From Spirochaetia bacterium (GTDB lineage: Bacteria; Spirochaetota; Spirochaetia; SZUA-6; Bin103): 64,000 nucleotides of DNA. Shown piece after piece: positions 2,826 to 63,261 of this stretch (its first letter is position 1; each line of letters starts with the position of its first letter). Position numbers and translations under genes: made by a program. A model generated the notes under the pieces. The model did not search any database, had not been told where the DNA came from, and was given only the letters and a program-made list of their open reading frames with translations. The stretch is taken from the NCBI GenBank assembly GCA_965208575.1, contig CBDBOV010000004.1, positions 480,001 through 544,000 of the forward strand, in the 5' to 3' direction.

Positions 2826-4732
2826 GAGCCAATTGCGCTGTCGGTAAGTTCCAAGCGGGCAGCGAGATAGAAGTGGGCGATTTTTTCTTTACCCCGTGAC
2901 CGAGGCAATTGCGCTTGCTGCAAGCCCGATGCAGGCGATCAGAAACCAGGGGGAGGTATTTCTTACCCCACGACCTGCTGATCCCCTGTACGCGCGTCGG
3001 GAGCGCCGGTCAAGGCCCCGATGATACATCGCAACTGTTTGTCTACAAAATAATTGACGGTTCTCCTGTAACTCGCCATAGTGGCAAGTGAACAGTAATT
3101 CACAACAGGAGAACCGCCGATGGCCACTATACCACATCCGTTTCTGTTCCGCTGGGACAGCGTCGACCAGTTGGGTGATCTCGAACGCCTGACGCTGGTG
3201 CTCGACGCGCTCCCCGACGAGCCGCTGATGCAACTGCTGGAAGCCGGTCGCGGTCGCGGTCGCAACGATTATCCGGTGCGCCCGATGTGGAACTCGCTGA
3301 TCGCCGGCTTCGTGTTCCAGCATCCCAGCATCGCCGCCTTGCGGCGCGAGTTGCTGCGCAACGCGCAGTTGCGAGACCTGTGCGGGTTCGACCCGTTCGA
3401 CGGCGCACGGGCGGTGCCCAGCGAATACGCCTATACCCGCTTCCAGCGCCGGCTGCGCAAGCATCAGGGGCAGATCGATGAGCTGTTCCACAGCACCCTC
3501 GACGAACTCCGGATTGAGCTGCCGGACCTGGGCCAGGTACAGGCGCTGGACGGCAAGGAGCTGCACTCCCTGGCCAACGGTCCGAGCAGCTATCCGGTGC
3601 CGAAGGATAACAAGGAAGACACCGACGGGCGCCGCGACCGCGATGCCGATTGGGGCGTCAAGGGTTCCGGCGAGAAGAAGGGCGAGAAGGGCGAGAAGAA
3701 AGGCAAGAAGAAACACTACTGGTTCGGCTACCTGTTGCACTTGGTCGTGGACGCCACCTACGAGGTGCCGCTGGCGTTCGAGGTCACCAAGGCGTCGACC
3801 GGTGAGCAGCCGCAGGCACAGCGACTGCTTGATCAGATGCAGGATCGTCATCCCGAGCTGCTGCAACGGTGCGATCGCCTGAGCGCCGACAAGGGCTACG
3901 ACGACCAAAAGCTGATCAATCGGCTGTGGCAACAGCATCAGATCAAGCCGGTCATCGACATTCGAAACTGCTGGAAGGACGGAGAGGCGGAGCAGGATGG
4001 CGTCCTCACCAAGCGGGTGAGCGGTCAGGAGAACGTGATCTATACCCACGACGGCCAGGTATCCTGCATGTGCCCGCGGACCGGTGAACTGCACCGCATG
4101 GCCTACGGCGGCTTCGAGCAGGCTCGCGAGTCGCTCAAGTATCGCTGTCCGGCGCGCTACTCGGGGGTCACCTGCAAGGGCATGGATCGGTGCCCGGTGA
4201 GCGACGCGGTGCGCATCCCGCTGGCCGAGGATCGGCGCGTGTTCACGCCGGTGGCGCGGTCCAGCTACCGGTGGCAGGACTTCTACGACCAGCGCGGTGC
4301 CGTGGAGCGGGTCAACAGCCGGTTGGCCGGCGGCTTCGGGTTCGAGCGACCGGGCATCCGCGGGCTGGCGAAGATGCAGCTGCGCGTCACCATGGCGCTG
4401 ACGATCATGCTGGCGATGGCCGTGGGGCGCATCCGCGCCGGCCAACCAGAGAACCTGCGGAGTCTGGTCAAACCCGCCTGACCGACGGCCACTCGCCGGT
4501 CACCAAGAAACCCAATCCCACCGGCTCCTCAGCGAGACCGGTCTGTCCCGATCTGTGCATTGAGCCACGGATGAGGCTTGATCCCACCTCGCGGACCCCA
4601 CTCAGCACACTCGATAGAGCCGTCATTCGGCGCCGGGCGAGCGTCAGCGACGCCGTCAACGTCCCGGGCGCGTGCTCTCTGGTGTGACCGGCTGCTCAAC
4701 GGCCCAAAAAACCGCTACAGCGCAATTGGCTC
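2826..4732 (+). mobile_element. IS1182/IS5-like insertion sequence, copy 1 (1907 bp)
   Basis: 16-bp terminal IR GAGCCAATTGCGCTGT / ACAGCGCAATTGGCTC; 5-bp direct repeat GAGGG at 2821-2825 and 4733-4737. Confidence 0.9.
3120..4481 (+). CDS. DDE transposase (DUF772 + DDE_Tnp_1-like)
   Basis: Motifs ALDGK, YWFGYLLHLVVDA, ADKGYDD, RGAVERVNSRL; lies inside terminal IRs. Confidence 0.9.
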   Translation: MATIPHPFLFRWDSVDQLGDLERLTLVLDALPDEPLMQLLEAGRGRGRNDYPVRPMWNSLIAGFVFQHPSIAALRRELLRNAQLRDLCGFDPFDGARAVPSEYAYTRFQRRLRKHQGQIDELFHSTLDELRIELPDLGQVQALDGKELHSLANGPSSYPVPKDNKEDTDGRRDRDADWGVKGSGEKKGEKGEKKGKKKHYWFGYLLHLVVDATYEVPLAFEVTKASTGEQPQAQRLLDQMQDRHPELLQRCDRLSADKGYDDQKLINRLWQQHQIKPVIDIRNCWKDGEAEQDGVLTKRVSGQENVIYTHDGQVSCMCPRTGELHRMAYGGFEQARESLKYRCPARYSGVTCKGMDRCPVSDAVRIPLAEDRRVFTPVARSSYRWQDFYDQRGAVERVNSRLAGGFGFERPGIRGLAKMQLRVTMALTIMLAMAVGRIRAGQPENLRSLVKPA

Positions 4733-4737
4733 GAGGG

Positions 4738-6644
4738 GAGCCAATTGCGCTGTCGGTAAGTTCCAAGCGGGCAGCGAGATAGAAGTGGGCGATTTTTTCT
4801 TTACCCCGTGACCGAGGCAATTGCGCTTGCTGCAAGCCCGATGCAGGCGATCAGAAACCAGGGGGAGGTATTTCTTACCCCACGACCTGCTGATCCCCTG
4901 TACGCGCGTCGGGAGCGCCGGTCAAGGCCCCGATGATACATCGCAACTGTTTGTCTACAAAATAATTGACGGTTCTCCTGTAACTCGCCATAGTGGCAAG
5001 TGAACAGTAATTCACAACAGGAGAACCGCCGATGGCCACTATACCACATCCGTTTCTGTTCCGCTGGGACAGCGTCGACCAGTTGGGTGATCTCGAACGC
5101 CTGACGCTGGTGCTCGACGCGCTCCCCGACGAGCCGCTGATGCAACTGCTGGAAGCCGGTCGCGGTCGCGGTCGCAACGATTATCCGGTGCGCCCGATGT
5201 GGAACTCGCTGATCGCCGGCTTCGTGTTCCAGCATCCCAGCATCGCCGCCTTGCGGCGCGAGTTGCTGCGCAACGCGCAGTTGCGAGACCTGTGCGGGTT
5301 CGACCCGTTCGACGGCGCACGGGCGGTGCCCAGCGAATACGCCTATACCCGCTTCCAGCGCCGGCTGCGCAAGCATCAGGGGCAGATCGATGAGCTGTTC
5401 CACAGCACCCTCGACGAACTCCGGATTGAGCTGCCGGACCTGGGCCAGGTACAGGCGCTGGACGGCAAGGAGCTGCACTCCCTGGCCAACGGTCCGAGCA
5501 GCTATCCGGTGCCGAAGGATAACAAGGAAGACACCGACGGGCGCCGCGACCGCGATGCCGATTGGGGCGTCAAGGGTTCCGGCGAGAAGAAGGGCGAGAA
5601 GGGCGAGAAGAAAGGCAAGAAGAAACACTACTGGTTCGGCTACCTGTTGCACTTGGTCGTGGACGCCACCTACGAGGTGCCGCTGGCGTTCGAGGTCACC
5701 AAGGCGTCGACCGGTGAGCAGCCGCAGGCACAGCGACTGCTTGATCAGATGCAGGATCGTCATCCCGAGCTGCTGCAACGGTGCGATCGCCTGAGCGCCG
5801 ACAAGGGCTACGACGACCAAAAGCTGATCAATCGGCTGTGGCAACAGCATCAGATCAAGCCGGTCATCGACATTCGAAACTGCTGGAAGGACGGAGAGGC
5901 GGAGCAGGATGGCGTCCTCACCAAGCGGGTGAGCGGTCAGGAGAACGTGATCTATACCCACGACGGCCAGGTATCCTGCATGTGCCCGCGGACCGGTGAA
6001 CTGCACCGCATGGCCTACGGCGGCTTCGAGCAGGCTCGCGAGTCGCTCAAGTATCGCTGTCCGGCGCGCTACTCGGGGGTCACCTGCAAGGGCATGGATC
6101 GGTGCCCGGTGAGCGACGCGGTGCGCATCCCGCTGGCCGAGGATCGGCGCGTGTTCACGCCGGTGGCGCGGTCCAGCTACCGGTGGCAGGACTTCTACGA
6201 CCAGCGCGGTGCCGTGGAGCGGGTCAACAGCCGGTTGGCCGGCGGCTTCGGGTTCGAGCGACCGGGCATCCGCGGGCTGGCGAAGATGCAGCTGCGCGTC
6301 ACCATGGCGCTGACGATCATGCTGGCGATGGCCGTGGGGCGCATCCGCGCCGGCCAACCAGAGAACCTGCGGAGTCTGGTCAAACCCGCCTGACCGACGG
6401 CCACTCGCCGGTCACCAAGAAACCCAATCCCACCGGCTCCTCAGCGAGACCGGTCTGTCCCGATCTGTGCATTGAGCCACGGATGAGGCTTGATCCCACC
6501 TCGCGGACCCCACTCAGCACACTCGATAGAGCCGTCATTCGGCGCCGGGCGAGCGTCAGCGACGCCGTCAACGTCCCGGGCGCGTGCTCTCTGGTGTGAC
6601 CGGCTGCTCAACGGCCCAAAAAACCGCTACAGCGCAATTGGCTC
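4738..6644 (+). mobile_element. IS1182/IS5-like insertion sequence, copy 2 (apparently identical tandem copy)
   Basis: Same IRs; third GAGGG at 6645-6649; 1912-bp period. Confidence 0.9.
5032..6393 (+). CDS. DDE transposase, identical to 3120-4481
   Basis: Identical 453-aa translation. Confidence 0.9.
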   Translation: MATIPHPFLFRWDSVDQLGDLERLTLVLDALPDEPLMQLLEAGRGRGRNDYPVRPMWNSLIAGFVFQHPSIAALRRELLRNAQLRDLCGFDPFDGARAVPSEYAYTRFQRRLRKHQGQIDELFHSTLDELRIELPDLGQVQALDGKELHSLANGPSSYPVPKDNKEDTDGRRDRDADWGVKGSGEKKGEKGEKKGKKKHYWFGYLLHLVVDATYEVPLAFEVTKASTGEQPQAQRLLDQMQDRHPELLQRCDRLSADKGYDDQKLINRLWQQHQIKPVIDIRNCWKDGEAEQDGVLTKRVSGQENVIYTHDGQVSCMCPRTGELHRMAYGGFEQARESLKYRCPARYSGVTCKGMDRCPVSDAVRIPLAEDRRVFTPVARSSYRWQDFYDQRGAVERVNSRLAGGFGFERPGIRGLAKMQLRVTMALTIMLAMAVGRIRAGQPENLRSLVKPA

Positions 6645-20566: not shown

Positions 20567-22408
20567 CTAATGACCCATTGCTTTCTTCAGCTCACTATCA
20601 ATCCAGAGGCGTGGGAAAATAGTAAAGTGTTGCCTTCCTCCCATGCCGGCTTCGCCGTTATAACCTATCACCCACGGCTAGTGCACCTGATACTGCGGGG
20701 ACAAAAGCCCCCAGAGCGCCCAGTGCTGCTCTATCGCGCGCATGCTCATATCTTTCGCCAGCCTCCGCTCCTCCTCCACGGTGATGGTAGCAGCTTGCAG
20801 CGCTTCCCACCCGGCGTCAAATTGCGCGTCGCGGACGGAGGCGTTCCTATTATGGCCGCTCCAATACCATCCCAGCTGATATTGGCTCCTGGCTGGGTTA
20901 CCAAAGGCAGAGTACGTATAGGCGCACGATTCTGATGTTATCTCATAATTTCCAGATACCTCGTCAGCGAACCATTCCGCAGATGGCAGAGCAAAAATAT
21001 CCACATCGACGCCAATCTCACGCCAGTATTCAGCCTGTAATTCTATAAAGCTCGAATCATACACATCCCGGAAGCTGCGCCTGACCTTGAATCTAATGCC
21101 GTCGGCACCGCCAGGATATCCCGCCTCGTCAAGCAGCTTCTCGGCCCCTGCCACGTCATAGGTATAGTATCCCTTGAGCTCTTCGGACCACTCTTCAAAC
21201 GGGACGACATGCTCCTTGAAAACCCTGCCTATAAACCCCTGAGGTATCGTATCCCCAGCACCGTCATATAGGGCACGGTTGATTGTCTCCATGTCAATTG
21301 CCATCTGCAGTGCGCGGCGCACCCGGACGTCGTCAAGGGGCGGCTTGCTCACGTTAATCAAACCACAATTATTGGACCGGTCTAAATACAGATGCGCCAC
21401 GAGTTCCGGGTTGGTCCGCAAGAGGCTCTCTAGCTGGTCTACCTCCCTTAATTGAGAGTCGCCCGCGAAACCTACGAAATCGATCTTAGCCGTGCGCAGT
21501 CCCGCCACCGTTGTTGCCGTTTCCGTGATAGTAAGGGCCTCTACCTCGTCAATATAGGGCAAACGGTTCTCCGGGTATTTTTCGTCGAAGCCCCAGTAGT
21601 TAGGATTCTTGGTATAGGTTATAGAGCTGGCCGCGACGAAGTCAGTTATCGTATAGGGCCCGGTGCCGACCACATTCCTCCAATCCTTCATGTCCCCGTA
21701 TTGCTCGATTACCTCGGGGGGCTGTATAACACCGTTCCACCAGTCCAAGATCCTCTCCAGGACGTGATGCTGTGGCTCCTTTAGCTTAAAGACAACCGTA
21801 TATTTGTCGGTGGCCGTTACCGATTCCCAAGGCAAAGTTGCGAAGTCACCCCACGATTGATTAGGTTCGGCTGCACTGAACTCGGTCCCTGTCAACTTAT
21901 TCCCCAATAAACGGTGAAAGGTATGTTCTACATCATAGGCAGTTAGCTCCCGACCGTTCATCGGTGGCTTATCATGCCATTTAACGCCCTGGCGGATGTT
22001 GACGATATAGGTTGTGTCGTCGGGCTGCTCCCAGCTTTCCGCCAGCGCTCCCCTTATGGCGTTTAGAGGCAGTAAGTCGCCGCTAGCGAAGGAATACGTG
22101 TCCCTATCTATTGCCCAGTCCCCGATGCCCAGTTTCTCTACAACGCCACTGGTGGCGAAAAGTGCACTCGCGGTAAACCAGGCGTCAAAACCAAAAGCGC
22201 TTAAGTCCCATCTAATGACGTGGGTTAATTTCCCGCCGTACTGTGGCGCGGACACCGCCTTGCCGGTGACGGGGTCGGTCACATACCTCTTGTCGGCAGC
22301 GGCTGCCGGTGCCTCTTCCGCCCCAGTGGCCCACAGGCCGGTTGCGGTCAGAATCAGGACCAACGCTACCGCGAAGGTCCTTGTAATTGTATTCTGTACA
22401 AGAATCAT
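20567..22408 (-). pseudogene. Family-5 SBP of cassette 1 with a premature TAG 37 codons before its end
   Basis: TAG at 20678-20680 where paralogs have CAG (QPWV); the frame continues PWVIGYNGE...RLWIDSELKKAMGH* to 20567. Confidence 0.85.
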
Positions 22409-22419
22409 ACGTAGCTCCG

Positions 22420-22602
22420 TATGTAGATTTTTCGAGAGTATTGCGTAGCGGATTGCCGCTCCCTGGCTACTCTCGCGCCCGCAACGCAGACGGCCGGCCA
22501 GACAGAGTCAGATTTGTGAAGCGCGCGGCGTGTGAGTCACCGGGTTCACCCCGGCTCACGCCGCGCGCGCGTGCGGTTCTTTGAGTATCATTCGAACCGC
22601 CT
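22420..22602 (-). promoter_or_regulatory. Conserved structured 5' leader of the SBP operon, copy 1; intron-free allele
   Basis: Homologous to 28890-29076, 44522-44708, 56090-56285 and 61281-61465. Confidence 0.7.
22556..22591 (-). CDS. Putative leader peptide MILKEPHARAA (also the C-terminus of a 140-aa ORF starting at 22978)
   Basis: AGGCGG-N5-ATG; peptide conserved in 5 copies. Confidence 0.55.
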   Translation of the reverse strand: MILKEPHARAA

Positions 22603-29029: not shown

Positions 29030-29065
29030 TCACGCCGCGCGCGCGTGCGGTTCTTTGAGTATCAT
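29030..29065 (-). CDS. Putative leader peptide MILKEPHARAA
   Basis: AGGAGG-N5-ATG; stop codon lies inside the hairpin. Confidence 0.6.
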   Translation of the reverse strand: MILKEPHARAA

Positions 29066-29076
29066 TCGAGCCTCCT

Positions 29077-29227
29077 GTGCGCCGGTAAAACCGGCAAGGT
29101 GTTGTGAATGGAAGAGTCATACGTCGAAGGGTTAGCGACCCACGGCGGCTCCGAGTCATGCGCCGCCGCCCGCGAGGGCGGGGGTGAAGCGTTGACAGGG
29201 GTACGTGCGGGCCGGGTATCAAGCCGC
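29077..29227 (+). mobile_element. Group II intron 5' remnant (~150 nt)
   Basis: Starts GTGCG after CCTCCT; matches 56286-56437. Confidence 0.8.
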
Positions 29228-29485
29228 CACGCGTGGCGGTGGTCTGAGCAGCAGTGAGTCTGAATGGCCGCCAACGCCGGCGGTGGGTTTTGCGCGCAGT
29301 TAGTCGCGGGCGGGGATCCGGCACGGTCGCGGTCGCCGACAACGGCATGGGCGGCCCGCATGCCGGTTCGGCTATGGACGGAGCCGGTGCCACCGATAGC
29401 TACGGCGGTAGTGGAGGCGATGGCGTGCGCGGGGGCGCGTAGGGGGCGATCAGCCTGAGCGGTTAATGCTTTTTCTAATAAAGAG

Positions 29486-31217: not shown

Positions 31218-32655
31218 GGGTGCGAACGCCGAAAGCGGTAGCAAATCATTGACTCTGAGGCGGAAAAAAGGTCTACCTACCCCACGACACCACACCATGG
31301 GGAGGTAGACCATGAATACGGAAGGACTTATAACGGCCGCCGAGGGCCTTGTCAAGGAGTTGCAAGGGCGCATCAACGGCGGCCGGATGGATCTCCAGGA
31401 GGCGGAAGCCAAGATCCTTGAGATGGTGAACTGGATCGGCGACGAGATGGTGCAGGAAGTGGTAGCCGGACTCGCGGAGCCGACATCCGCCAACCAGATC
31501 ACGGTTGGCGGTGAGGTGGCAGTGTTCGAGCGGGTGCGTAACCTGCGGTTCATCAACCGCTTCGGCGAAGAAGTGGTGCACCCGCGGCGCTGCTACCGGT
31601 ACCGGCACCGGAGCGGAGGCGTGGCGCCGCTGGATGTGAAGCTGGGGATCGACGGGTGCTTCGGATTCTCACCGCTGATGACGTACCTGATCTGCATGCT
31701 GGGCGCGGATGAGTCGTATGCCGGTGCAGCGGCAAAACTGGAGGCGATGCTCGGGTTCAAGGTGAGCTCGACGGCGGTGCAGCGCACTACCGAGAAGACG
31801 GGAGAGCGGATACCCGATACCCCCGACGATCTAATTGATGAGCAGCGTCAGCGGCAGCCATGTTCCCTGATGGTGGTCGAGGTAGACGGAACGACGAGCC
31901 CGCAGATCACGGAGCAGGAAGGGATTACTGGTCTTGCCAGCCTCCGGGCGCCGACCTGTTACAAGGAGTGCAACCTGATAGTCATCGAGAAGCACGATGA
32001 TGGCAAGGTGATCGACCGCTGGACCGGAGGACGCTATGGACCACGCGGTGAGTTTGCCGGCTACGCCGAGCAGGCTGGACTGCGAATGGGCTTCCTGGAC
32101 GCTCCACGAACGCTGTTCCTCGGTGATGGTGCACACCACAACTGGGAACTGCAGCAGACCCACTTCCCCGGCGCGATACCGATCCTGGACTACTACCACG
32201 CGGCTGAGCACCTCGCCGATTACTGCAAGCTGCTGTCTGCTACGCTACGCGATGCCGTCGAGCGCAGCTTGTCCACGATGATGTGGGAAGGCGAGGTGCT
32301 GCAGATGATCCACGAGATGAAGCGTTCACTGTCGAAGGTCACCGATACTGACGAAGCGTGGAAGCAGATCAACTACTTCACGAACAACCAGGACCGTATG
32401 GACTATGCCCGTTACCGCGATCTCGGGTGGCCGATCGGCAGTGGCTTGGTCGAAGGGCAGTGCAAATTGGTTGTCGGTCGACGCTTCAAGGGCAACGGGA
32501 TGAGATGGCGACCGCACGACAACCGCTGCGTGCTACGCACCCGTCTGGCTCTGCTCAACGGCGACCTCAAGCGCTATTTCAGTCCTCCTGACGACTGCGA
32601 GATCAAAGCGGCCTGATCGTGTCAACCCCTGTTACCGCTTTTGGCATTGGCACCC
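31218..32655 (+). mobile_element. ISKra4/ISLre2-like element B, copy 1
   Basis: IR GGGTGCGAACGCCGAAAGCGGTA / TACCGCTTTTGGCATTGGCACCC; DR GAACTCAC at 31210 and 32656. Confidence 0.88.
31312..32616 (+). CDS. ISKra4/ISLre2-family transposase
   Basis: GDGAHHNW, LDYYHA, PIGSGLVEGQCK. Confidence 0.9.
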   Translation: MNTEGLITAAEGLVKELQGRINGGRMDLQEAEAKILEMVNWIGDEMVQEVVAGLAEPTSANQITVGGEVAVFERVRNLRFINRFGEEVVHPRRCYRYRHRSGGVAPLDVKLGIDGCFGFSPLMTYLICMLGADESYAGAAAKLEAMLGFKVSSTAVQRTTEKTGERIPDTPDDLIDEQRQRQPCSLMVVEVDGTTSPQITEQEGITGLASLRAPTCYKECNLIVIEKHDDGKVIDRWTGGRYGPRGEFAGYAEQAGLRMGFLDAPRTLFLGDGAHHNWELQQTHFPGAIPILDYYHAAEHLADYCKLLSATLRDAVERSLSTMMWEGEVLQMIHEMKRSLSKVTDTDEAWKQINYFTNNQDRMDYARYRDLGWPIGSGLVEGQCKLVVGRRFKGNGMRWRPHDNRCVLRTRLALLNGDLKRYFSPPDDCEIKAA

Positions 32656-32663
32656 GAACTCAC

Positions 32664-34102
32664 GGGTGCGAACGCCGAAAGCGGTAGCAAATCATTGACT
32701 CTGAGGCGGAAAAAAGGTCTACCTACCCCACGACACCACACCATGGGGAGGTAGACCATGAATACGGAAGGACTTATAACGGCCGCCGAGGGCCTTGTCA
32801 AGGAGTTGCAAGGGCGCATCAACGGCGGCCGGATGGATCTCCAGGAGGCGGAAGCCAAGATCCTTGAGATGGTGAACTGGATCGGCGACGAGATGGTGCA
32901 GGAAGTGGTAGCCGGACTCGCGGAGCCGACATCCGCCAACCAGATCACGGTTGGCGGTGAGGTGGCAGTGTTCGAGCGGGTGCGTAACCTGCGGTTCATC
33001 AACCGCTTCGGCGAAGAAGTGGTGCACCCGCGGCGCTGCTACCGGTACCGGCACCGGAGCGGAGGCGTGGCGCCGCTGGATGTGAAGCTGGGGATCGACG
33101 GGTGCTTCGGATTCTCACCGCTGATGACGTACCTGATCTGCATGCTGGGCGCGGATGAGTCGTATGCCGGTGCAGCGGCAAAACTGGAGGCGATGCTCGG
33201 GTTCAAGGTGAGCTCGACGGCGGTGCAGCGCACTACCGAGAAGACGGGAGAGCGGATACCCGATACCCCCGACGATCTAATTGATGAGCAGCGTCAGCGG
33301 CAGCCATGTTCCCTGATGGTGGTCGAGGTAGACGGAACGACGAGCCCGCAGATCACGGAGCAGGAAGGGATTACTGGTCTTGCCAGCCTCCGGGCGCCGA
33401 CCTGTTACAAGGAGTGCAACCTGATAGTCATCGAGAAGCACGATGATGGCAAGGTGATCGACCGCTGGACCGGAGGACGCTATGGACCACGCGGTGAGTT
33501 TGCCGGCTACGCCGAGCAGGCTGGACTGCGAATGGGCTTCCTGGACGCTCCACGAACGCTGTTCCTCGGTGATGGTGCACACCACAACTGGGAACTGCAG
33601 CAGACCCACTTCCCCGGCGCGATACCGATCCTGGACTACTACCACGCGGCTGAGCACCTCGCCGATTACTGCAAGCTGCTGTCTGCTACGCTACGCGATG
33701 CCGTCGAGCGCAGCTTGTCCACGATGATGTGGGAAGGCGAGGTGCTGCAGATGATCCACGAGATGAAGCGTTCACTGTCGAAGGTCACCGATACTGACGA
33801 AGCGTGGAAGCAGATCAACTACTTCACGAACAACCAGGACCGTATGGACTATGCCCGTTACCGCGATCTCGGGTGGCCGATCGGCAGTGGCTTGGTCGAA
33901 GGGCAGTGCAAATTGGTTGTCGGTCGACGCTTCAAGGGCAACGGGATGAGATGGCGACCGCACGACAACCGCTGCGTGCTACGCACCCGTCTGGCTCTGC
34001 TCAACGGCGACCTCAAGCGCTATTTCAGTCCTCCTGACGACTGCGAGATCAAAGCGGCCTGATCGTGTCAACCCCTGTTACCGCTTTTGGCATTGGCACC
34101 CC
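32664..34102 (+). mobile_element. ISKra4/ISLre2-like element B, copy 2
   Basis: Tandem copy with 1446-bp period; DR GAACTCAC at 34103. Confidence 0.88.
32758..34062 (+). CDS. ISKra4/ISLre2-family transposase, identical copy
   Basis: Identical translation to 31312-32616. Confidence 0.9.
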   Translation: MNTEGLITAAEGLVKELQGRINGGRMDLQEAEAKILEMVNWIGDEMVQEVVAGLAEPTSANQITVGGEVAVFERVRNLRFINRFGEEVVHPRRCYRYRHRSGGVAPLDVKLGIDGCFGFSPLMTYLICMLGADESYAGAAAKLEAMLGFKVSSTAVQRTTEKTGERIPDTPDDLIDEQRQRQPCSLMVVEVDGTTSPQITEQEGITGLASLRAPTCYKECNLIVIEKHDDGKVIDRWTGGRYGPRGEFAGYAEQAGLRMGFLDAPRTLFLGDGAHHNWELQQTHFPGAIPILDYYHAAEHLADYCKLLSATLRDAVERSLSTMMWEGEVLQMIHEMKRSLSKVTDTDEAWKQINYFTNNQDRMDYARYRDLGWPIGSGLVEGQCKLVVGRRFKGNGMRWRPHDNRCVLRTRLALLNGDLKRYFSPPDDCEIKAA

Positions 34103-44661: not shown

Positions 44662-44697
44662 TCACGCCGCGCGCGCGTGCGGTTCTTTGAGTATCAT
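44662..44697 (-). CDS. Putative leader peptide MILKEPHARAA
   Basis: AGGAGG-N5-ATG. Confidence 0.6.
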   Translation of the reverse strand: MILKEPHARAA

Positions 44698-44708: not shown

Positions 44709-44860
44709 GTGCGCCGGTAAAAACCGGCAAGGTGTTGTGAATGGAAGAGTCATACGTCGAAGGGTTAGCGACCCACGGCGGCTCCGAGTCATGCGCCGCC
44801 GCCCGCGAGGGCGGGGGTGAAGCGTTGACAGGGGTACGTGCGGGCCGGGTATCGAGCCGC
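44709..44860 (+). mobile_element. Group II intron 5' remnant
   Basis: GTGCG start; same deletion breakpoint as the 29077 copy. Confidence 0.8.
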
Positions 44861-45119
44861 CACGCGTGGCGGTGGTCTGAGCAGCAGTGAGTCTGAATGG
44901 CCGCCAACGCCGGCGGTGGGTTTTGCGCGCAGTTAGTCGCGGGCGGGGATGCGGGACGGTTGCGGTCGCCTGGAAGGACGCGGGCGGCCAGCATGCCGGT
45001 TTGGCGATGGACCGAGCGGGCGCCACCGATAGCTACGGCGGTGGTGAAGGCGACGGTGTGCGCGCTTTCGCGTACGGGGCGATCAGCCCGAGCGGTTAGT
45101 TGTTCCTCGGTTTCTCGGT

Positions 45120-56072: not shown

Positions 56073-56238
56073 CCTGTCTTCCTTACATGTTATCTCCAGA
56101 GTATTGCGGAGCGAGTTGTCGCTCCCTGGCTACTTTCGGGCCCGCAACGCGGGCGCGCCCGCCAGAGCGGGCTGCCAGTCTGAGTCAGTCAAGTTTTCGG
56201 AAGCGCGCGGCGTGTGACTCACCCGGGTTCACGCCGGC

Positions 56239-56274
56239 TCACGCCGCACGCGCGTGCGGTTCTTTCAGTATCAT
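56239..56274 (-). CDS. Putative leader peptide MILKEPHARAA
   Basis: AGGAGG-N5-ATG; synonymous CTG and CGT variants relative to the other copies. Confidence 0.6.
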   Translation of the reverse strand: MILKEPHARAA

Positions 56275-56285
56275 CTTCACCTCCT

Positions 56286-57525
56286 GTGCGCCGGCACAAA
56301 CCGGCAGGGTGTTGTGAATGAAGGAGTCATACGTCGAAGGGCTAGCGACCCACGGCGGCCCCGAGTCATGCGCCGTCGCTCGTAAGGGCGGGGGTGTAGC
56401 GTTGACAGGGGTACGTGCGGGCCGGGTATCGAGCCGCGAAAGGAATTACTTTGGGGTGCCGACGCCGTAGGAGGATGCGGAAGGCCACACCCGGGGCGCC
56501 GATATCGCGAGGCGCCACGGGACCCTGCGCGGTCATAGACCCCGAGCACGTACGGAAACACCTTGCGCGGGAGCCGGGAGATCCCAGCTTCGTCTGTGGC
56601 GGATGGCGCCGCAGGCCGTGTCGGGAAGTCCAAGGACGTACGCCGACGTTGAACGGAGCTGGGAAGTCGGACAGGCCCATAGTACCTGGGAAACCCGCGA
56701 ACAAGGACGGGAGCTGCCGCAGGCGGCGCGGCTATGGTGAACCCTACACGGGCACGCAGGCGGAAACGCCGGATACAGCCAAGGGAGCACCTACGGCCAC
56801 GCCGGCCGGTAGCGACCGGGCCGCGGAGCGGGTGGAGGAAAGGGGCCTGGCCAAAGGGAATCCGCACCAGCAAAACGCGCCCCGGACACCGCGCCGGCAA
56901 TACGGAGGGGACCTGGAGGCCAACCTCCTGGACCTCTGTGGATGGCTGCAGCGAGGAGCGTACCGGGCGAAGCCGGTGCGGAGGGTGTTCGTCCCCAAGA
57001 GCGACGGGCGGCAACGACCGCTCGGCGTGACGGCGCTGGAAGACAAGATCGTCCAGCGTGCGACAGTCGAAGTGCTGAACACCATCTACGAGACTGACTT
57101 TCTCGGGTTCAGTTACGGGTTCCGACCGGGGCGCAGCAAGTACAATGCGTTGGACGCGCTCTATGTGGGCCTGCTGACACGGAAGGTGAACTGGGTGCTC
57201 GATATGGACATCCGTGGGTTCTTCGATGCCATCGACCACGGCTGGCTGGTGAAGACCGAGCTTCGGCGGCGCCTGCACGATCCGGTCCCGGAGGTGGGAA
57301 GCTGGCTGCGCTCGGTTGTGAGTGGGCACCTGCGTTACTACGGGGTGCCCAGGAACTCCCGCGCACTCCGCCTGTTCCGCCTCCGGGTTGGTCGGCTCTG
57401 GTATCGGTCGATGCGGCGGCGCAGTCAGAAAACCCGGCTTACCTGGGAGCGGATGAGCCGCCTGCTCGACCACTGGTTGCCACCGCCCCGAGTGTGCCAT
57501 CCCTATCCCTTGCACCGCCTTGGCG
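56286..57525 (+). mobile_element. Group II intron with internally deleted RT/maturase; 3' domains V-VI missing
   Basis: GTGCG start; PKSDGRQRPLGV..EDKIVQ, FSYGFRPGR, DMDIRGFFD joined directly to the maturase HLRYYGV..RRRSQK; no YADD. Confidence 0.88.
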
Positions 57526-58544
57526 GGACGGTTGCGGTCGCCTGGAAGGACGAGGGCGGCCAGCATGCCGGTTCGGCGATGGACCGAGCGGGCGCCACCG
57601 ATAGCTACGGCGGTGGTGAAGGCGACGGTGTGCGCGGGGCCGCGTACGGGGCGATCAGCCCGAGCGGTTAGTTGTTTCTCGGTTTCTCGGTTTCTCGGTT
57701 TGAAAAAGTTGGGGGGGGGGGGGGTATGATGCACCGGTCGCGTCACCGGTCGGAGCTTGTCGGCATTGCCGACGAGGTCCGAGCGTGTCGATGGGATGGG
57801 CCAAGAGCGACGCCTCTGGCGTCGGTTTTGGGGCGCGAACCGGTCACTGCGCTGCCTGTCATCGTGACGCTTCATGACCATCCGTCGAACCCCAAGTGAG
57901 GCACGCTAGCATAGGCGCGGCGCGCCGTCAACGACTCGAGGGGGTCACCGGGGTGAGCGAAGGTCACCGGCAACCCGTCACTGCGCTGACTGTCATCATG
58001 GCGCGTCATCATCGATCCGTCGAACCCCAGGCGAGGCAAGCTTGCTGTGGGCGCGGGCACCCTGTCATTTGGGCCGACCCGTGGGACCCGTGCGTGCGCG
58101 GCGGACCGGCAGCCCCGCGGTGTCACGCCGGATGCGCCCACCTGTGGCTCCGTCCTGGCCCCATGGGTGTGCATGCGCCGTCGGCTGCTCCGAAGGCGCG
58201 CCCGGAACGCGCCCGACCAAGTCCACGAGCGTCGGGCTGGGTATGGGCGTGAGCTCACCCGTCAGCCCGAAGCAGCGCCTGGGCACCGCGTCACCGCAGA
58301 CCGAGTCGCCGAAGTGTACTGAGTTAGTGGTCCCGTAGGGCTGGCTCCGAGAAGCGTGGCAGGTGTTGACCCGGGCGACCGGCGACCCCACCGATCTTGA
58401 CGCTGATTTCTCGTACGTCTCCCATCGGTGCACTTTCAATACTCGTCGTCACAGCGAAGCCGGGCACCAGGTATCTCATCACACGACTGACGCGTCGCCG
58501 TTTCGTGGGCCCCGTGACCGGACAGTGCGGGCCATCGGAGAGAT

Positions 58545-59095
58545 GCCGGAGGCACTGCCGCGGCCGCTGGAGCATTTCATGGACGCCGTTGTGCGCGGCG
58601 CCACGGCAAGCCGCCCAACGGGCCCGGAGACCCGTCGCCGCATCTACGTCGCGGACAAGGAGGCGGTGTTCCCGATCCGTCTCCTGGTGCGGGAAGCCGA
58701 TTACAAGCTGTTTGGATTCTTCCCCACCAACGTCCATCTGCTGGGGTGGCCGCATCCGTTCCAGCGCGGAGCAGGTCACGATCGCGGGCGTCGGCGCCTT
58801 CAATATCAAAGCGGGGTCGTTGAGAACTCACCTACGCCGTCCAGGAGAAGCTGCTGCAGGATCCGGTGTGGTACGTGGACGCCGACGGCGGCCTCGACCT
58901 GGACAAGCTGCTGGCGGACTTCCAGGCGTTCTTCCGCGAGCACCCCGAGCCCCCGCAGGGCCGCGAAGCGGGGTGGCGCGCTTCGACTACGTCGAGGCGG
59001 GTCCGCAGCTCCTGCTGCAGTCGTTCCTGCAACGGATCGTGAACTGCGGCGGGCGCATCGAGCGCGAGTACGGTCTGGGGCGGGGGCGCACCGAT
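58545..59095 (+). pseudogene. Telescoped mosaic of gene fragments (permease and AAA gene pieces)
   Basis: Pieces match 11130-11250, 17023-17095, 17530-17660 and 17664-17790, in that order. Confidence 0.8.
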
Positions 59096-60710: not shown

Positions 60711-61280
60711 GTTGGAGTAGGCGATGACCATCGCTGATCACCCCCTCCACAGATCCCGGCGAGCGGAGCTACCGCACCGGGCTCCTGCCTCAGGTATGAC
60801 GCCAAGGCGGTGCAAGGGATAGGGATGGCACACTCGGGGCGGTGGCAACCAGTGGTCGAGCAGACGGCTCATCCGCTCCCAGGTAAGCCGGGTTTTTTGA
60901 CTGCGCCGCCGCATCGACCGATACCAGAGCCGACCAACCCGGAGGCGGAACAGGCGGAGTGCGCGGGGGTTCGTGGGCACCCCGTAGTATCGCAGGTGCC
61001 CACCCACAACCGAGCGCAGCCAGCTTCCCACCTCCGCGACCGAATCGTGCAGGCGCCGCCGAGGCTTGGTCTTCACCTGCCCCAGCTTGGCCTGCAACCG
61101 CTTCCGCATCGTCTGCCTGAGCGCCGTAACCGTCCGTCACTCCACTTCGTCGCGCAGATGTGCGTGAACCCCAGGAAGTCGTACGAGCGACGGCGCATGA
61201 CTCGGGGCCGCCGTGGGTCGGTAACCCTTCGACGTATGACTCTTCCATTCACAACACCTTGCCGGTTTTTGCCGGCGCAC
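60711..61280 (-). mobile_element. Miniaturised group II intron retaining both ends (570 nt)
   Basis: 5' GTGCG at 61280; domain V GAGCCCGGTGCGGTAGCTCCGCTCGCCGGGATC at about 60784-60752; domain VI ends ...CTACTCCAAC at 60711; maturase fragment inside. Confidence 0.88.
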
Positions 61281-61291
61281 AGGAGGTTCGA

Positions 61292-61327
61292 ATGATACTC
61301 AAAGACCCGCACGCGCGCGCGGCGTGA
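61292..61327 (+). CDS. Putative leader peptide MILKDPHARAA
   Basis: AGGAGG(61281)-N5-ATG. Confidence 0.6.
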   Translation: MILKDPHARAA

Positions 61328-61470
61328 GCCGGGGCGAACCCGGTGAGTCACACGCCGCGCGCGTCACCCATTCGACTCTGTCTGGCCGCCTGCGTTGCGG
61401 GCGCGAGACTAGCCAGGGAGCGGCAAGTCGCTCCGCAATACTCTCGAAAAATCCACATAGGGAGAAACCT

Positions 61471-63261
61471 ATGAACATTGTAAGAATTAGAATGACCTTC
61501 GCGTTTGCGTTGGTCCTGATTCTGAGCGCAACCGGCCTGTGGGCCGCCGGCGCAGAAGAGGCGCCGGCAGCCGCTGCCGACAAGAAGTACGTTACCGACC
61601 CCTCCACCGGCAAGGTGGTGACCGCGCCAGAGTACGGCGGGACAATAACCTACGCCAAAGCAGGAGAGCCGCCGAATCCTGACTACATGGTCTCTGCTCA
61701 CGGTCATGGTGCCTTTACCTCTGGCGTTTTAGGGAGGCTGGTAACCGCGGACTGGGCAACGCCCAGAGACAAACATGACTTCGTGTTTCACAACGTTCCA
61801 ACTAACACGATAGGGGGTCTGGCTGAAAGCTGGTCGCAGCCCGACCCACTGACTTATATCGTCAAAGTCCGCCAGGGCGTTCACTGGCACGACAAGGCAC
61901 CGATGAACGGTCGCGAGCTGACTGCCGATGATATCGAGTTCAACTATCACCGTATCTTGGGCCTTGGCAGCGGTTTCACCGAACGTAGTGAACGTGCTAG
62001 TAGCTGGAAGGGTATGCAATTTGAATCGATAACGGCCACCGACAACTGGACGGTTGTTTTTGAGCTAAAGGAGCTAAACCTCCGTGCGCTGGCTGTTATC
62101 CTCGACGACTGGAGTACTGCGATATATCCCCCCGAGGTAATCAGGGAACACGGCGACGCGACCGACTGGCGCAACCTGGTCGGCACCGGACCCTGGATGC
62201 TGACTGACTACGTCGAGGGCAGCTCTATCACCTGGGAAAAGAATCCTGACTACTGGGGCTTCGACGAAAAATACCCGCAGAACCGGCTGCCCTATATTGA
62301 CCGGTTAAGGGCACTGATTATGCCAGAGGCAGCGACACGCCTAGCGGCACTGCGCACGGGTGGGGTTGATTACATGGGTCTGATCGGGGGAACTCAAATG
62401 ACGAGTCTCGACCAGATAAGGAGCCTCCAGCGGACCAACCCCGAACTCGTGTGGTGGCCAATTTACAATCGGTCGGATAATGCGTTTGGTATGAACGTTC
62501 AGTTGCCTCCCTTCGACGACATCAGGGTGCGCAAAGCTATGCAAATGGCAATAAACCTCGAGGAAATTAACAACGCCTATTATGGAGGTACTGCAGATGT
62601 GATACCTCAGGGGCCTCTTACCGTGATGATGACAGAGATTGTCACCCACTTTGAAGATTGGCCCGAAGATGTCAAGAAGGTCTTTGACTACGACCCGGAA
62701 GGTGCCGAAGCGTTGCTTGATGAGGCCGGATATCCTCGCGGCGCGGACGGCATTAGATTTAAGACCGAGTTGCTGCACAGCGAGGCGTTCGATGTAAACT
62801 ATCTAGAATTAGTCGCTTCATACTGGAATAAGATTGGCGTTGATGTAGAGATTGACCTAGCGCCAAGAGCTGAAATTGTTGCTAGAAGTCGTGAGCGGGA
62901 TTTCGAAATGAAAGGTGCGAACGCGGCCCAGAAGTGGTTCCCAATGGTAATGCTAAATAACCTTACGTCGGGAATGCTATGGAACTCGTCCAATGTCGAC
63001 GACCCAGCTTATGACGCCATGTATGAAGCCGCCGGAGCCGCTACCACCCTCGAGGAGCAGAACAGGATAGCTGGAGAGATGAATCAGTATGCAATAGAGA
63101 AGTTCTGGACGATATGGGGTCCCATGCCCCCAAAGTTTCAGCCGACCCAGCCGTGGGTTAAAGGTTTTAACGGTGAATTCGCAATCGGAACCGGTCAACT
63201 ACACCAAGTCTTCGCCCGACTGTGGATTGATAGTGAGCTGAAGGAAGCAATGGGTCATTAG
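61471..63261 (+). CDS. Family-5 SBP, cassette 5 (inverted)
   Basis: Signal peptide; LAESWS, WHDKAPMNGRELTA, YWGFDEKYPQNRLPY. Confidence 0.92.
   Translation: MNIVRIRMTFAFALVLILSATGLWAAGAEEAPAAAADKKYVTDPSTGKVVTAPEYGGTITYAKAGEPPNPDYMVSAHGHGAFTSGVLGRLVTADWATPRDKHDFVFHNVPTNTIGGLAESWSQPDPLTYIVKVRQGVHWHDKAPMNGRELTADDIEFNYHRILGLGSGFTERSERASSWKGMQFESITATDNWTVVFELKELNLRALAVILDDWSTAIYPPEVIREHGDATDWRNLVGTGPWMLTDYVEGSSITWEKNPDYWGFDEKYPQNRLPYIDRLRALIMPEAATRLAALRTGGVDYMGLIGGTQMTSLDQIRSLQRTNPELVWWPIYNRSDNAFGMNVQLPPFDDIRVRKAMQMAINLEEINNAYYGGTADVIPQGPLTVMMTEIVTHFEDWPEDVKKVFDYDPEGAEALLDEAGYPRGADGIRFKTELLHSEAFDVNYLELVASYWNKIGVDVEIDLAPRAEIVARSRERDFEMKGANAAQKWFPMVMLNNLTSGMLWNSSNVDDPAYDAMYEAAGAATTLEEQNRIAGEMNQYAIEKFWTIWGPMPPKFQPTQPWVKGFNGEFAIGTGQLHQVFARLWIDSELKEAMGH

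Follow-up and report, generated by a model that had tools for sequence, protein, structure and literature searches.

In the translational attenuators of erm and cat genes, the leader carries an ORF of 6–14 codons with its own Shine-Dalgarno (SD) sequence, and the 3' part of this ORF forms the 5' arm of a stable hairpin, whose 3' arm masks the ribosome-binding site (RBS) of the gene under control. The hairpin is opened when a ribosome occupies the ORF, and the short nascent peptide ends near a stall-prone position. In the pyrBI, trp and his attenuators, the ribosome translating the leader peptide physically prevents a downstream hairpin from forming. In the metabolite-sensing arrest peptides TnaC and SpeFL (compare PMC8429421), a conserved short ORF is located before the regulated operon, and a proline occupies the critical position. 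For Sinorhizobium, upstream RBSs and uORFs have been predicted in which an SD and a start codon lie in the 5' leader, and the proposed mode of action is translational coupling or ribosome-mediated occlusion (PMC13285730).

We report here a leader of about 190 nt, whose 5' module is a short upstream ORF (uORF) and which is found on about 60 family-5 SBP genes of one Spirochaetia genome, with dozens more copies in sister genomes. This leader is a real, selected, multi-copy and undescribed element. A preliminary description of the window (the whole stretch of 64,000 nt that was analysed) had noted five uORF copies encoding an 11-residue peptide and had regarded them as candidate arrest peptides or attenuators; it had also proposed a motif search in related genomes and a dN/dS-type analysis, and had named frameshifts or nonsynonymous drift as signs against its reading. 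When the peptide pattern was searched for by degenerate back-translation, the window gave five matches against 0.00 expected from 100 shuffles, and all five copies lay where they had been placed. The SD of the uORF is located 5 nt 5' of the ATG and reads AGGAGG in four of the five window copies and AGGCGG in one, and the differences within the ORF are limited to CTC/CTG, CGC/CGT and GAA/GAC, again in agreement with that description. The features of the plus-strand copy and the positions of the other copies are as follows.

61281–61286, plus strand: SD of the uORF, AGGAGG, 5 nt before the ATG
61292–61327, plus strand: uORF, MILKDPHARAA and stop; codons 1–6 conserved as protein, codons 7–11 and the stop in the 5' arm of P1
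61315–61362, plus strand: hairpin P1, a 12-bp G+C stem of 61315–61326 with 61351–61362; 98% of cells paired
61329–61333 with 61339–61343, plus strand: small hairpin P1b, enclosed by P1
61345–61349, plus strand: conserved GAGTC within the P1 loop
61345–61378, plus strand: candidate pseudoknot PK1, GAGTC (61345–61349) with GACTC (61374–61378); 98% of cells paired
61382–61445, plus strand: pseudoknotted core P2–P4, conserved helices, two of them crossing
61382–61386 with 61412–61416, plus strand: P2, CTGGC with GCCAG
61388–61393 with 61397–61402, plus strand: P2a, 6 bp with a GTT loop; compensatory changes
61405–61411 with 61439–61445, plus strand: P3, GAGAGTA with TACTCTC, crossing P2; compensatory changes
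61419–61423 with 61428–61432, plus strand: P4; compensatory changes
61456–61473, plus strand: hairpin P5, CATAGG (61456–61461) with CCTATG (61468–61473); SD of the SBP gene in the loop, its ATG in the stem
61471–63261, plus strand: family-5 SBP gene, 596 aa (Pfam SBP_bac_5, E = 5.8e-66)
22556–22591, minus strand: uORF copy, MILKEPHARAA and stop, SD AGGCGG; no intron upstream of the leader
29030–29065, minus strand: uORF copy; intron remnant at 29113–29252 on the plus strand
44662–44697, minus strand: uORF copy; intron remnant at 44746–44885 on the plus strand
56239–56274, minus strand: uORF copy; the longest intron copy begins at 56286 on the plus strand
61100–61280, minus strand: degenerate 5' end of a group II intron, partial RF02005 match of 25.5 bits (gathering 49), E = 1.7e-5; abuts the SD of the uORF

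The 12-bp stem that had been noted, GCGCGCGGCGTG (61315–61326) with CACGCCGCGCGC (61351–61362), is present and includes the TG of the TGA stop, and in the plus-strand copy it is also part of the predicted minimum-energy fold; the 200-nt leader is predicted to fold at −88 kcal/mol (z = −3.7). The uORF also precedes an SBP gene as claimed, the SBP ATG at 61471 of the plus-strand copy being 144 nt past the uORF stop. The conservation of the ORF is there as well, but in the five-copy alignment it is no better than that of the following ~150 nt: conservation covers everything from the SD to the SBP start, with a mean column identity of 83% when the five window regions are aligned. In four of the five window copies the upstream ~110 nt is conserved too, because a group II intron on the opposite strand has its 5' end there. 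The preliminary description thus had the uORF and the stem, and overlooked the intron, the number of copies and the pseudoknotted core. In the plus-strand copy only, the SBP frame is open for 49 codons 5' of the ATG (61324–61470), back to a GTG in P1; a frameshift or an N-terminal SBP extension was rejected, because the four other window copies have no upstream-open frame.

An iterated nhmmer search gave 63 matches of the ~190-nt leader in the 6.5-Mb genome, 56 of which are followed by ORFs of 570–630 aa, namely ~600-aa SBP paralogs with a common signal-anchor sequence; the two downstream ORFs tested with Pfam were both identified as SBP_bac_5. The genome holds at least 133 SBP_bac_5 matches against these 63 leaders (56 with a full-length SBP ORF), and the remaining SBPs need other upstream regions. 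Elsewhere in the window, a pair of 518-aa and 453-aa ORFs is repeated 1912 nt apart (2889–6393) and a 434-aa ORF is repeated 1446 nt apart (31312–34062), which suggests tandem duplicated elements.

At the DNA level, the search of related genomes found the leader in 7 of the 10 further genomes from this genus and in none of 13 genomes of the sister genus. A covariance model built from the structured core alone, which recovers all copies, matched 8 of 92 genomes of the order including this one, all belonging to one genus; with this model the leader was absent from all 81 order genomes outside the genus, the DNA search being in agreement, and two genus genomes of ~95% completeness gave no leader match. 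At most 36 leader copies were scored per genome. Elsewhere, the most closely related SBPs come from MAGs that carry the labels Dehalococcoidia, "bacterium" or Spirochaetia, and most of these relatives have unrelated upstream sequence. Four SBP paralogs from lower-GC MAGs (L070, L072, L059 and L115) have unrelated leaders composed of tandem units; every unit combines an ATG and an SD-like motif with a conserved block resembling a hairpin, and upstream mini-ORFs may be a recurring theme before SBP genes. Four relatives from Dehalococcoidia MAGs (L060, L067, L075 and L106, at ~880–1215) carry long in-frame ~60-nt repeats, rich in GTC/GAG/AAG codons, before the matched SBP part; judging from its sequence, this array would be a repetitive N-terminal linker, not a leader.

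Because the genome is rich in repeats and introns and the leader is confined to one genus, the similarity of the copies could be attributed to young duplications, gene conversion or a mobile repeat having no function, and we hold this explanation to be highly improbable. Median identity is 46% at the amino acid level among the mature SBPs but 78% at the nucleotide level among the leaders, and therefore the leader is under selection. Third-codon-position identity in the adjacent signal-peptide region is 0.73, against 0.68 at identical residues of the mature part; neighbouring synonymous sites are thus not homogenised, and homogenisation or strong gene conversion does not explain the conservation of the leader. 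Its position, orientation and distance to the SBP start are also fixed among the copies, and variation is concentrated in the linkers, with the helices keeping their pairing.

An unbiased scan for conserved complementarity recovered P1, PK1, P2, P2a, P3 and P4, and for PK1 it found changes on both sides in five copies. Standard pairs occupy 95.4% of 2478 cells, against 27–52% when the partners are slid, and double changes affect seven pairs, the shuffled alignments giving 2.4 ± 1.2 (0 of 500 reach seven). The covariation score is 0.067 against 0.058 in shuffled alignments (again 0 of 500), a longer alignment gives the same picture, and covariation is limited in that all sequences are from one genus. 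The junction and loop bases of the core are near-invariant; in the consensus fold predicted by RNAalifold the SD/ORF region is unpaired, and 3' of the core there is an A-rich linker followed by the RBS of the SBP gene. A stem of at least 5 bp resembling P5 and ending at the SBP ATG is present in 34 of 84 copies, with at least four different stem sequences. When read on the minus strand, P5 and the A-rich linker score like an intrinsic terminator, a hairpin followed by a T-run (61456–61482), and the same antisense site is seen in other copies, e.g., at 22406–22433 on the plus strand; such a predicted site could stop antisense transcription leaving the SBP gene.

Other pairings were also considered. 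A helix P0 between the SD/ATG of the uORF and the linker after P1 has 7 bp in the plus-strand copy (61288–61294 with 61369–61375), and helices of this type with 7 or 8 bp and differing sequences occur in 18 of 92 copies; the complementarity within copies, 4.99, is barely above that of shuffled partners (4.85 ± 0.08; 17 of 300 reach it). Pairing of ACTCA in the ORF with TGAGT, or of TACTC with GAGTA, was rejected, since covariation is lacking and T>G and C>G changes, which are frequent, disrupt the pairing. When 4227 models of Rfam 15 were searched against 61100–61550, there was no match at E values up to 10 except for the opposite-strand intron, and nothing reached the gathering score in the leaders of the window. 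A self-cleaving ribozyme, HDV-like or otherwise, and a T-box were set aside because no Rfam model matched, and the helix order of the leader differs from the HDV ribozyme topology. Full-text literature searches found no description of such a leader in the text that these searches cover, so that the earlier view of a candidate undescribed element agrees both with the lack of an Rfam family match and with the literature as far as it was searchable.

Such a fold could stand on its own: the P1–P4 core would then work as an aptamer in the manner of a riboswitch, or would bind a protein or sRNA, and the uORF would be incidental or would merely keep the 5' end unfolded. We consider this rather unlikely. 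The high conservation of the core, its pseudoknots and near-invariant junction and loop bases, and the recovery of all copies by the core-only model would be expected from it, but no Rfam family matched even at E up to 10, and a search for an expression platform by which the core could act on a terminator or on the SBP SD gave none. A CsrA site at P5 was rejected because no CsrA homologue was found in the genome (95% complete). The uORF speaks against the RNA-only reading as well, and to this we now turn.

For the coding analysis we used 92 distinct copies in which neither the 5' part nor the core is missing; 53 belong to this genome, and sister genomes contribute 39. Within −15 to −4, 84 of the 92 carry an SD-like motif. 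The aligned start codon is ATG in 62, GTG in 9, TTG in 5 and CTG in 5, and 11 copies have no start codon; accordingly ATG, GTG or TTG is found in 76 of 92, and NTG in 81 of 92 if CTG is counted. Residues 2–6 are ILKEP in 63 of 92 copies, with variants that are mostly I>V or L>R. With a tree constructed from the remainder of the leader, substitution events were counted by parsimony. In codons 2–6 there are 48 synonymous and 35 nonsynonymous events (11 of the latter being I<->V), or 14.4 against 3.0 per site, and the resulting dN/dS-type ratio is 0.21. For K-E-P alone, hand arithmetic on the same table gives 36 synonymous against 10 nonsynonymous events and a ratio of ~0.06. The synonymous rate in codons 2–6 is about that of the variable linker columns (6–32 events), and the tolerated bases fit the genetic code: any base is accepted in CTN and CCN, and in AAR and GAR purines are kept in 21 of 23 events, the two exceptions being E>D. 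Less in favour of translation, raw three-base periodicity at the uORF, 0.615, is only marginally at the top, the next best of 149 other 15-column windows having 0.611.

Since an SD-like motif and a start codon are found in most copies and the ratio is 0.21, translation of the uORF is likely, and we regard it as quite probable that the uORF is translated. It is these same observations, the low ratio, the code-matched degeneracy and the frequent SD and NTG, that are hard to obtain without translation if the RNA alone mattered. Some points stay with an RNA-level role. The third base of codon 2, ATA, is nearly invariant (3 events) even though ATC and ATT are synonymous, so that the RNA itself must be under some constraint at this base; the degeneracy of AAR and GAR could also be mimicked if purines were required in the RNA. 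The 11 copies without a start codon would likewise be natural under an RNA-only reading, and several among these 11 and the five CTG copies retain intact SBP genes. P1 mismatches occur in 7 of the 11 start-less copies against 19 of 76 copies with a start (Fisher p = 0.014); a coupling between start codon and P1 was nevertheless rejected, because the start-less copies are degraded in every helix (3.18 vs 1.39) and the excess is not specific to P1.

After Pro6 the picture changes. Variation is now greatest at the first codon position (34 events, against 16 and 14 at the second and third), 1–2-nt indels occur, and six copies have TAG at codon 7. In the 92 copies the uORF has 11 aa in 65, 14 aa in 8 and 6 aa (MILKEP and stop) in 6, the others ranging from 4 to 48 aa. 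The 11-residue peptide therefore does not stand as one conserved unit: M-[I/V]-[L/R]-K-E-P is kept as protein, and the tail HARAA with its stop follows the hairpin P1, whose 5' arm approximately covers codons 8–11 and the TG of the stop in the plus-strand copy. Frameshifts, which had been named as a sign against the reading, are seen in this tail as indels and as varying frames and stops. The conserved property is an end within the hairpin and not the HARAA sequence: in 86 of 92 copies the stop is found at the P1 loop or 5' of it, and in 75 of 92 the foot of P1 is 23 nt past the start-codon A. Because the uORF ends inside P1, a ribosome would have to melt P1, as the preliminary description had pointed out.

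These findings bear directly on the reading of that description, in which an 11-residue arrest peptide senses a metabolite in the ribosome and controls a transcription attenuator formed by P1. The overlap of the uORF with the 5' arm of P1 suits it, and so do the invariant Pro at codon 6 and the six copies in which a stop follows directly, as a C-terminal Pro is known to slow termination. Residues 7–11 are, however, not conserved as peptide, with indels and lengths of 4–48 aa, and a chain of six residues is far shorter than TnaC or SpeFL. One identical sensor heads dozens of operons whose SBPs are 46% identical, which makes a substrate-specific sensor of the TnaC/SpeFL type unlikely. P1 also lacks the form of an attenuator. 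In 63 of 92 copies the 8 nt that follow P1 contain at most two T, and in 7 of 92 they contain five or more, and therefore P1 is not a canonical intrinsic terminator; no supported alternative (antiterminator) helix was seen in the leader copies, either in the unbiased scan or in folds with the ORF region forced open. We find the arrest-peptide attenuator quite unlikely. The metabolite-sensing attenuator is supported in part only: what stands is a uORF that is very probably translated and ends in P1.

A direct effect of P1 on the main RBS was sought in the same folds. When the ORF region was forced open in 82 copies, the unpaired probability from the SBP SD to the AUG moved from 0.425 to 0.433/0.434, in predictions that allow nested folds only. 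Opening P1 thus leaves the predicted accessibility of the SBP RBS unchanged, which speaks against the attenuator view and also against the switch favoured below; these predicted folds show no simple route leading from P1 to the main RBS. PK1 and P2/P3, which are outside such nested predictions, may be the link to the output. Another reading is that nothing is sensed and that the 5'-proximal RBS, mini-ORF and hairpin form a constitutive 5' stabiliser or translation booster, guarding long-lived and highly expressed SBP mRNAs from 5'-end-dependent decay in a manner resembling the ermC leader and the SD-type stabilisers of Bacillus. A very stable P1, the same leader on dozens of functionally different operons, and the failure to find an alternative fold tied to the main RBS all agree with this, as does the high summed depth of SBP regions in RNA libraries, depths that cannot rank genes. 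Against it, neither the conservation of K-E-P as peptide nor the 130-nt pseudoknotted core and its conserved loops would be required of a stabiliser, and a stabiliser of the RNase J type was rejected since the genome has no RNase J homologue at E <= 0.001, RNase J being the 5'-dependent nuclease searched for. In our judgement the stabiliser is unlikely.

As to transcription, a simple sigma-70 scan of the upstream region gave 0 sites around two copies. The block around ATGATACT was considered as a −10 box and dropped on this result, and also because the sequence 5' of the SD is not conserved among intron-free copies and the SD is present in RNA contigs of paralogs. Parts of the locus occur in sponge metatranscriptomes: the leader and the SBP gene are covered by contigs, and paralog contigs from sponge RNA libraries extend 11–39 nt 5' of the ATG with the SD included. 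Such contigs give no starts, ends, strand or levels, a gap in their cover proves nothing, and they may derive from DNA, so that they are a weak hint of leader transcription.

The opposite-strand introns give a separate view of the same junction. RF02005 (group II intron, domain I–IV) matched with 179.7, 103.3 and 100 bits on the opposite strand beside the copies at 56274, 44697 and 29065, and read on the intron strand the junction is CCTCCT|GTGCGCC, the intron start adjoining the reverse complement of the uORF SD. The copy at 22591 is intron-free, and its similarity to the other copies starts just 5' of the SD. Genome-wide there are 17 RF02005 matches, 9 of which abut a leader on the opposite strand at the SD. 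One intron copy (56286–57700, plus strand) contains a long RT ORF (56415–57671, RVT_1), the remaining copies have RT fragments only, and no further Rfam match such as domain V/VI was found in 56100–58900 at E up to 1; the intron copies therefore look degenerate. Right after the stop of the RT ORF, 57672–57725 holds three tandem 10-base units followed by ~15 G, which may be decayed intron interior or an assembly problem. The first 97–100 nt of the intron at 61100–61280 have 84–97% identity at nine other loci, and the SBPs adjoining the introns are 35–56% identical; from this disparity the introns look as if they had homed independently and repeatedly to a conserved target present in many copies. 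A candidate EBS1 partner for CCTCCT is AGGAGG at intron position 184, a weak one as a 6-mer.

Taking these results together, the best reading, in which we place about as much trust as doubt, is a ribosome-dependent leader switch that answers one global signal. Ribosomes would start on the short ORF and, by the geometry of the ribosomal helicase, meet the foot of P1, 23 nt past the A of the start codon, while adding Glu5/Pro6. They would then unwind P1, and PK1 if it is formed, and be released inside the hairpin; ribosome traffic or pausing at K-E-P would set the folding of P1/PK1 and of the core, and hence the output of the SBP operon. The input would be one global signal, for example translational status, or a shared ligand or factor that the core binds. 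Because the identical module precedes widely different SBPs, a global input is more plausible than sensing of the transporter substrate. A bolder form of the ribosome-dependent switch, rather improbable as a whole, is a hybrid device acting genus-wide on 60–100 uptake operons per genome, in which M-I-L-K-E-P would pause the ribosome at the foot of the hairpin and pseudoknot, a double-pseudoknot domain would sense a global cue, peptide, ribosome and aptamer would decide expression together, and a group II intron lineage would have evolved homing into the leader.

If the ribosome-dependent switch is true, an undescribed cis-regulatory leader would tie the expanded uptake family of a sponge-associated bacterium to a single control point, and would be a compact natural case of a conserved, very short nascent peptide physically coupled to a ribosome roadblock and to a pseudoknotted RNA. 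Its copy number per genome would be, to our knowledge, among the highest for such a cis-regulatory element. The alignment, with more than 90 natural variants, is a direct basis for mutational design, and the intron association indicates that a conserved regulatory sequence can become a landing site for a multi-copy retroelement; the weight of these points is limited by the restriction to one uncultured genus.

Among the described systems, the leader would by analogy work most like the short-ORF-plus-hairpin leaders of erm/cat and the ribosome-occlusion attenuators, yet it fails their defining features. It shares with erm/cat a short ORF having an SD-like motif (84/92) and ATG, GTG or TTG (76/92), and the overlap of this uORF with the 5' arm of a stable hairpin; unlike erm/cat, the 3' arm of P1 (61351–61362) is ~100 nt 5' of the SBP SD (~61460) with the 130-nt core between, the SBP RBS is not masked (predicted accessibility 0.425 to 0.433 on blocking the ORF region), and there is no antibiotic-resistance gene at the leader. 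As in the pyrBI, trp and his attenuators, the ribosome on the uORF would block P1, but M-I-L-K-E-P-H-A-R-A-A has no run of regulatory codons of the trp/his/leu kind, most P1 copies have no U-tract, and a conserved terminator/antiterminator alternative was not found in the leader copies. Like TnaC and SpeFL, the leader has a conserved short upstream ORF, with an invariant Pro6. It differs from them in that residues 1–6 only are conserved as protein (ratio 0.21) and residues 7–11 are not, and that an identical peptide stands before dozens of operons with different SBPs. Crossing helices, conserved junctions, some covariation and a fixed place before transporter genes are features common to this leader and the pseudoknotted riboswitches and cis-regulatory motifs of Rfam, from which it is set apart by its restriction to one genus and its unusually high copy number (63 in one genome). 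Finally, an SD and a start codon in the 5' leader are found here as in the Sinorhizobium uORF (PMC13285730); unlike those single-locus cases, the SBP leader is one uORF family common to a whole paralogous regulon and joined to a conserved fold.
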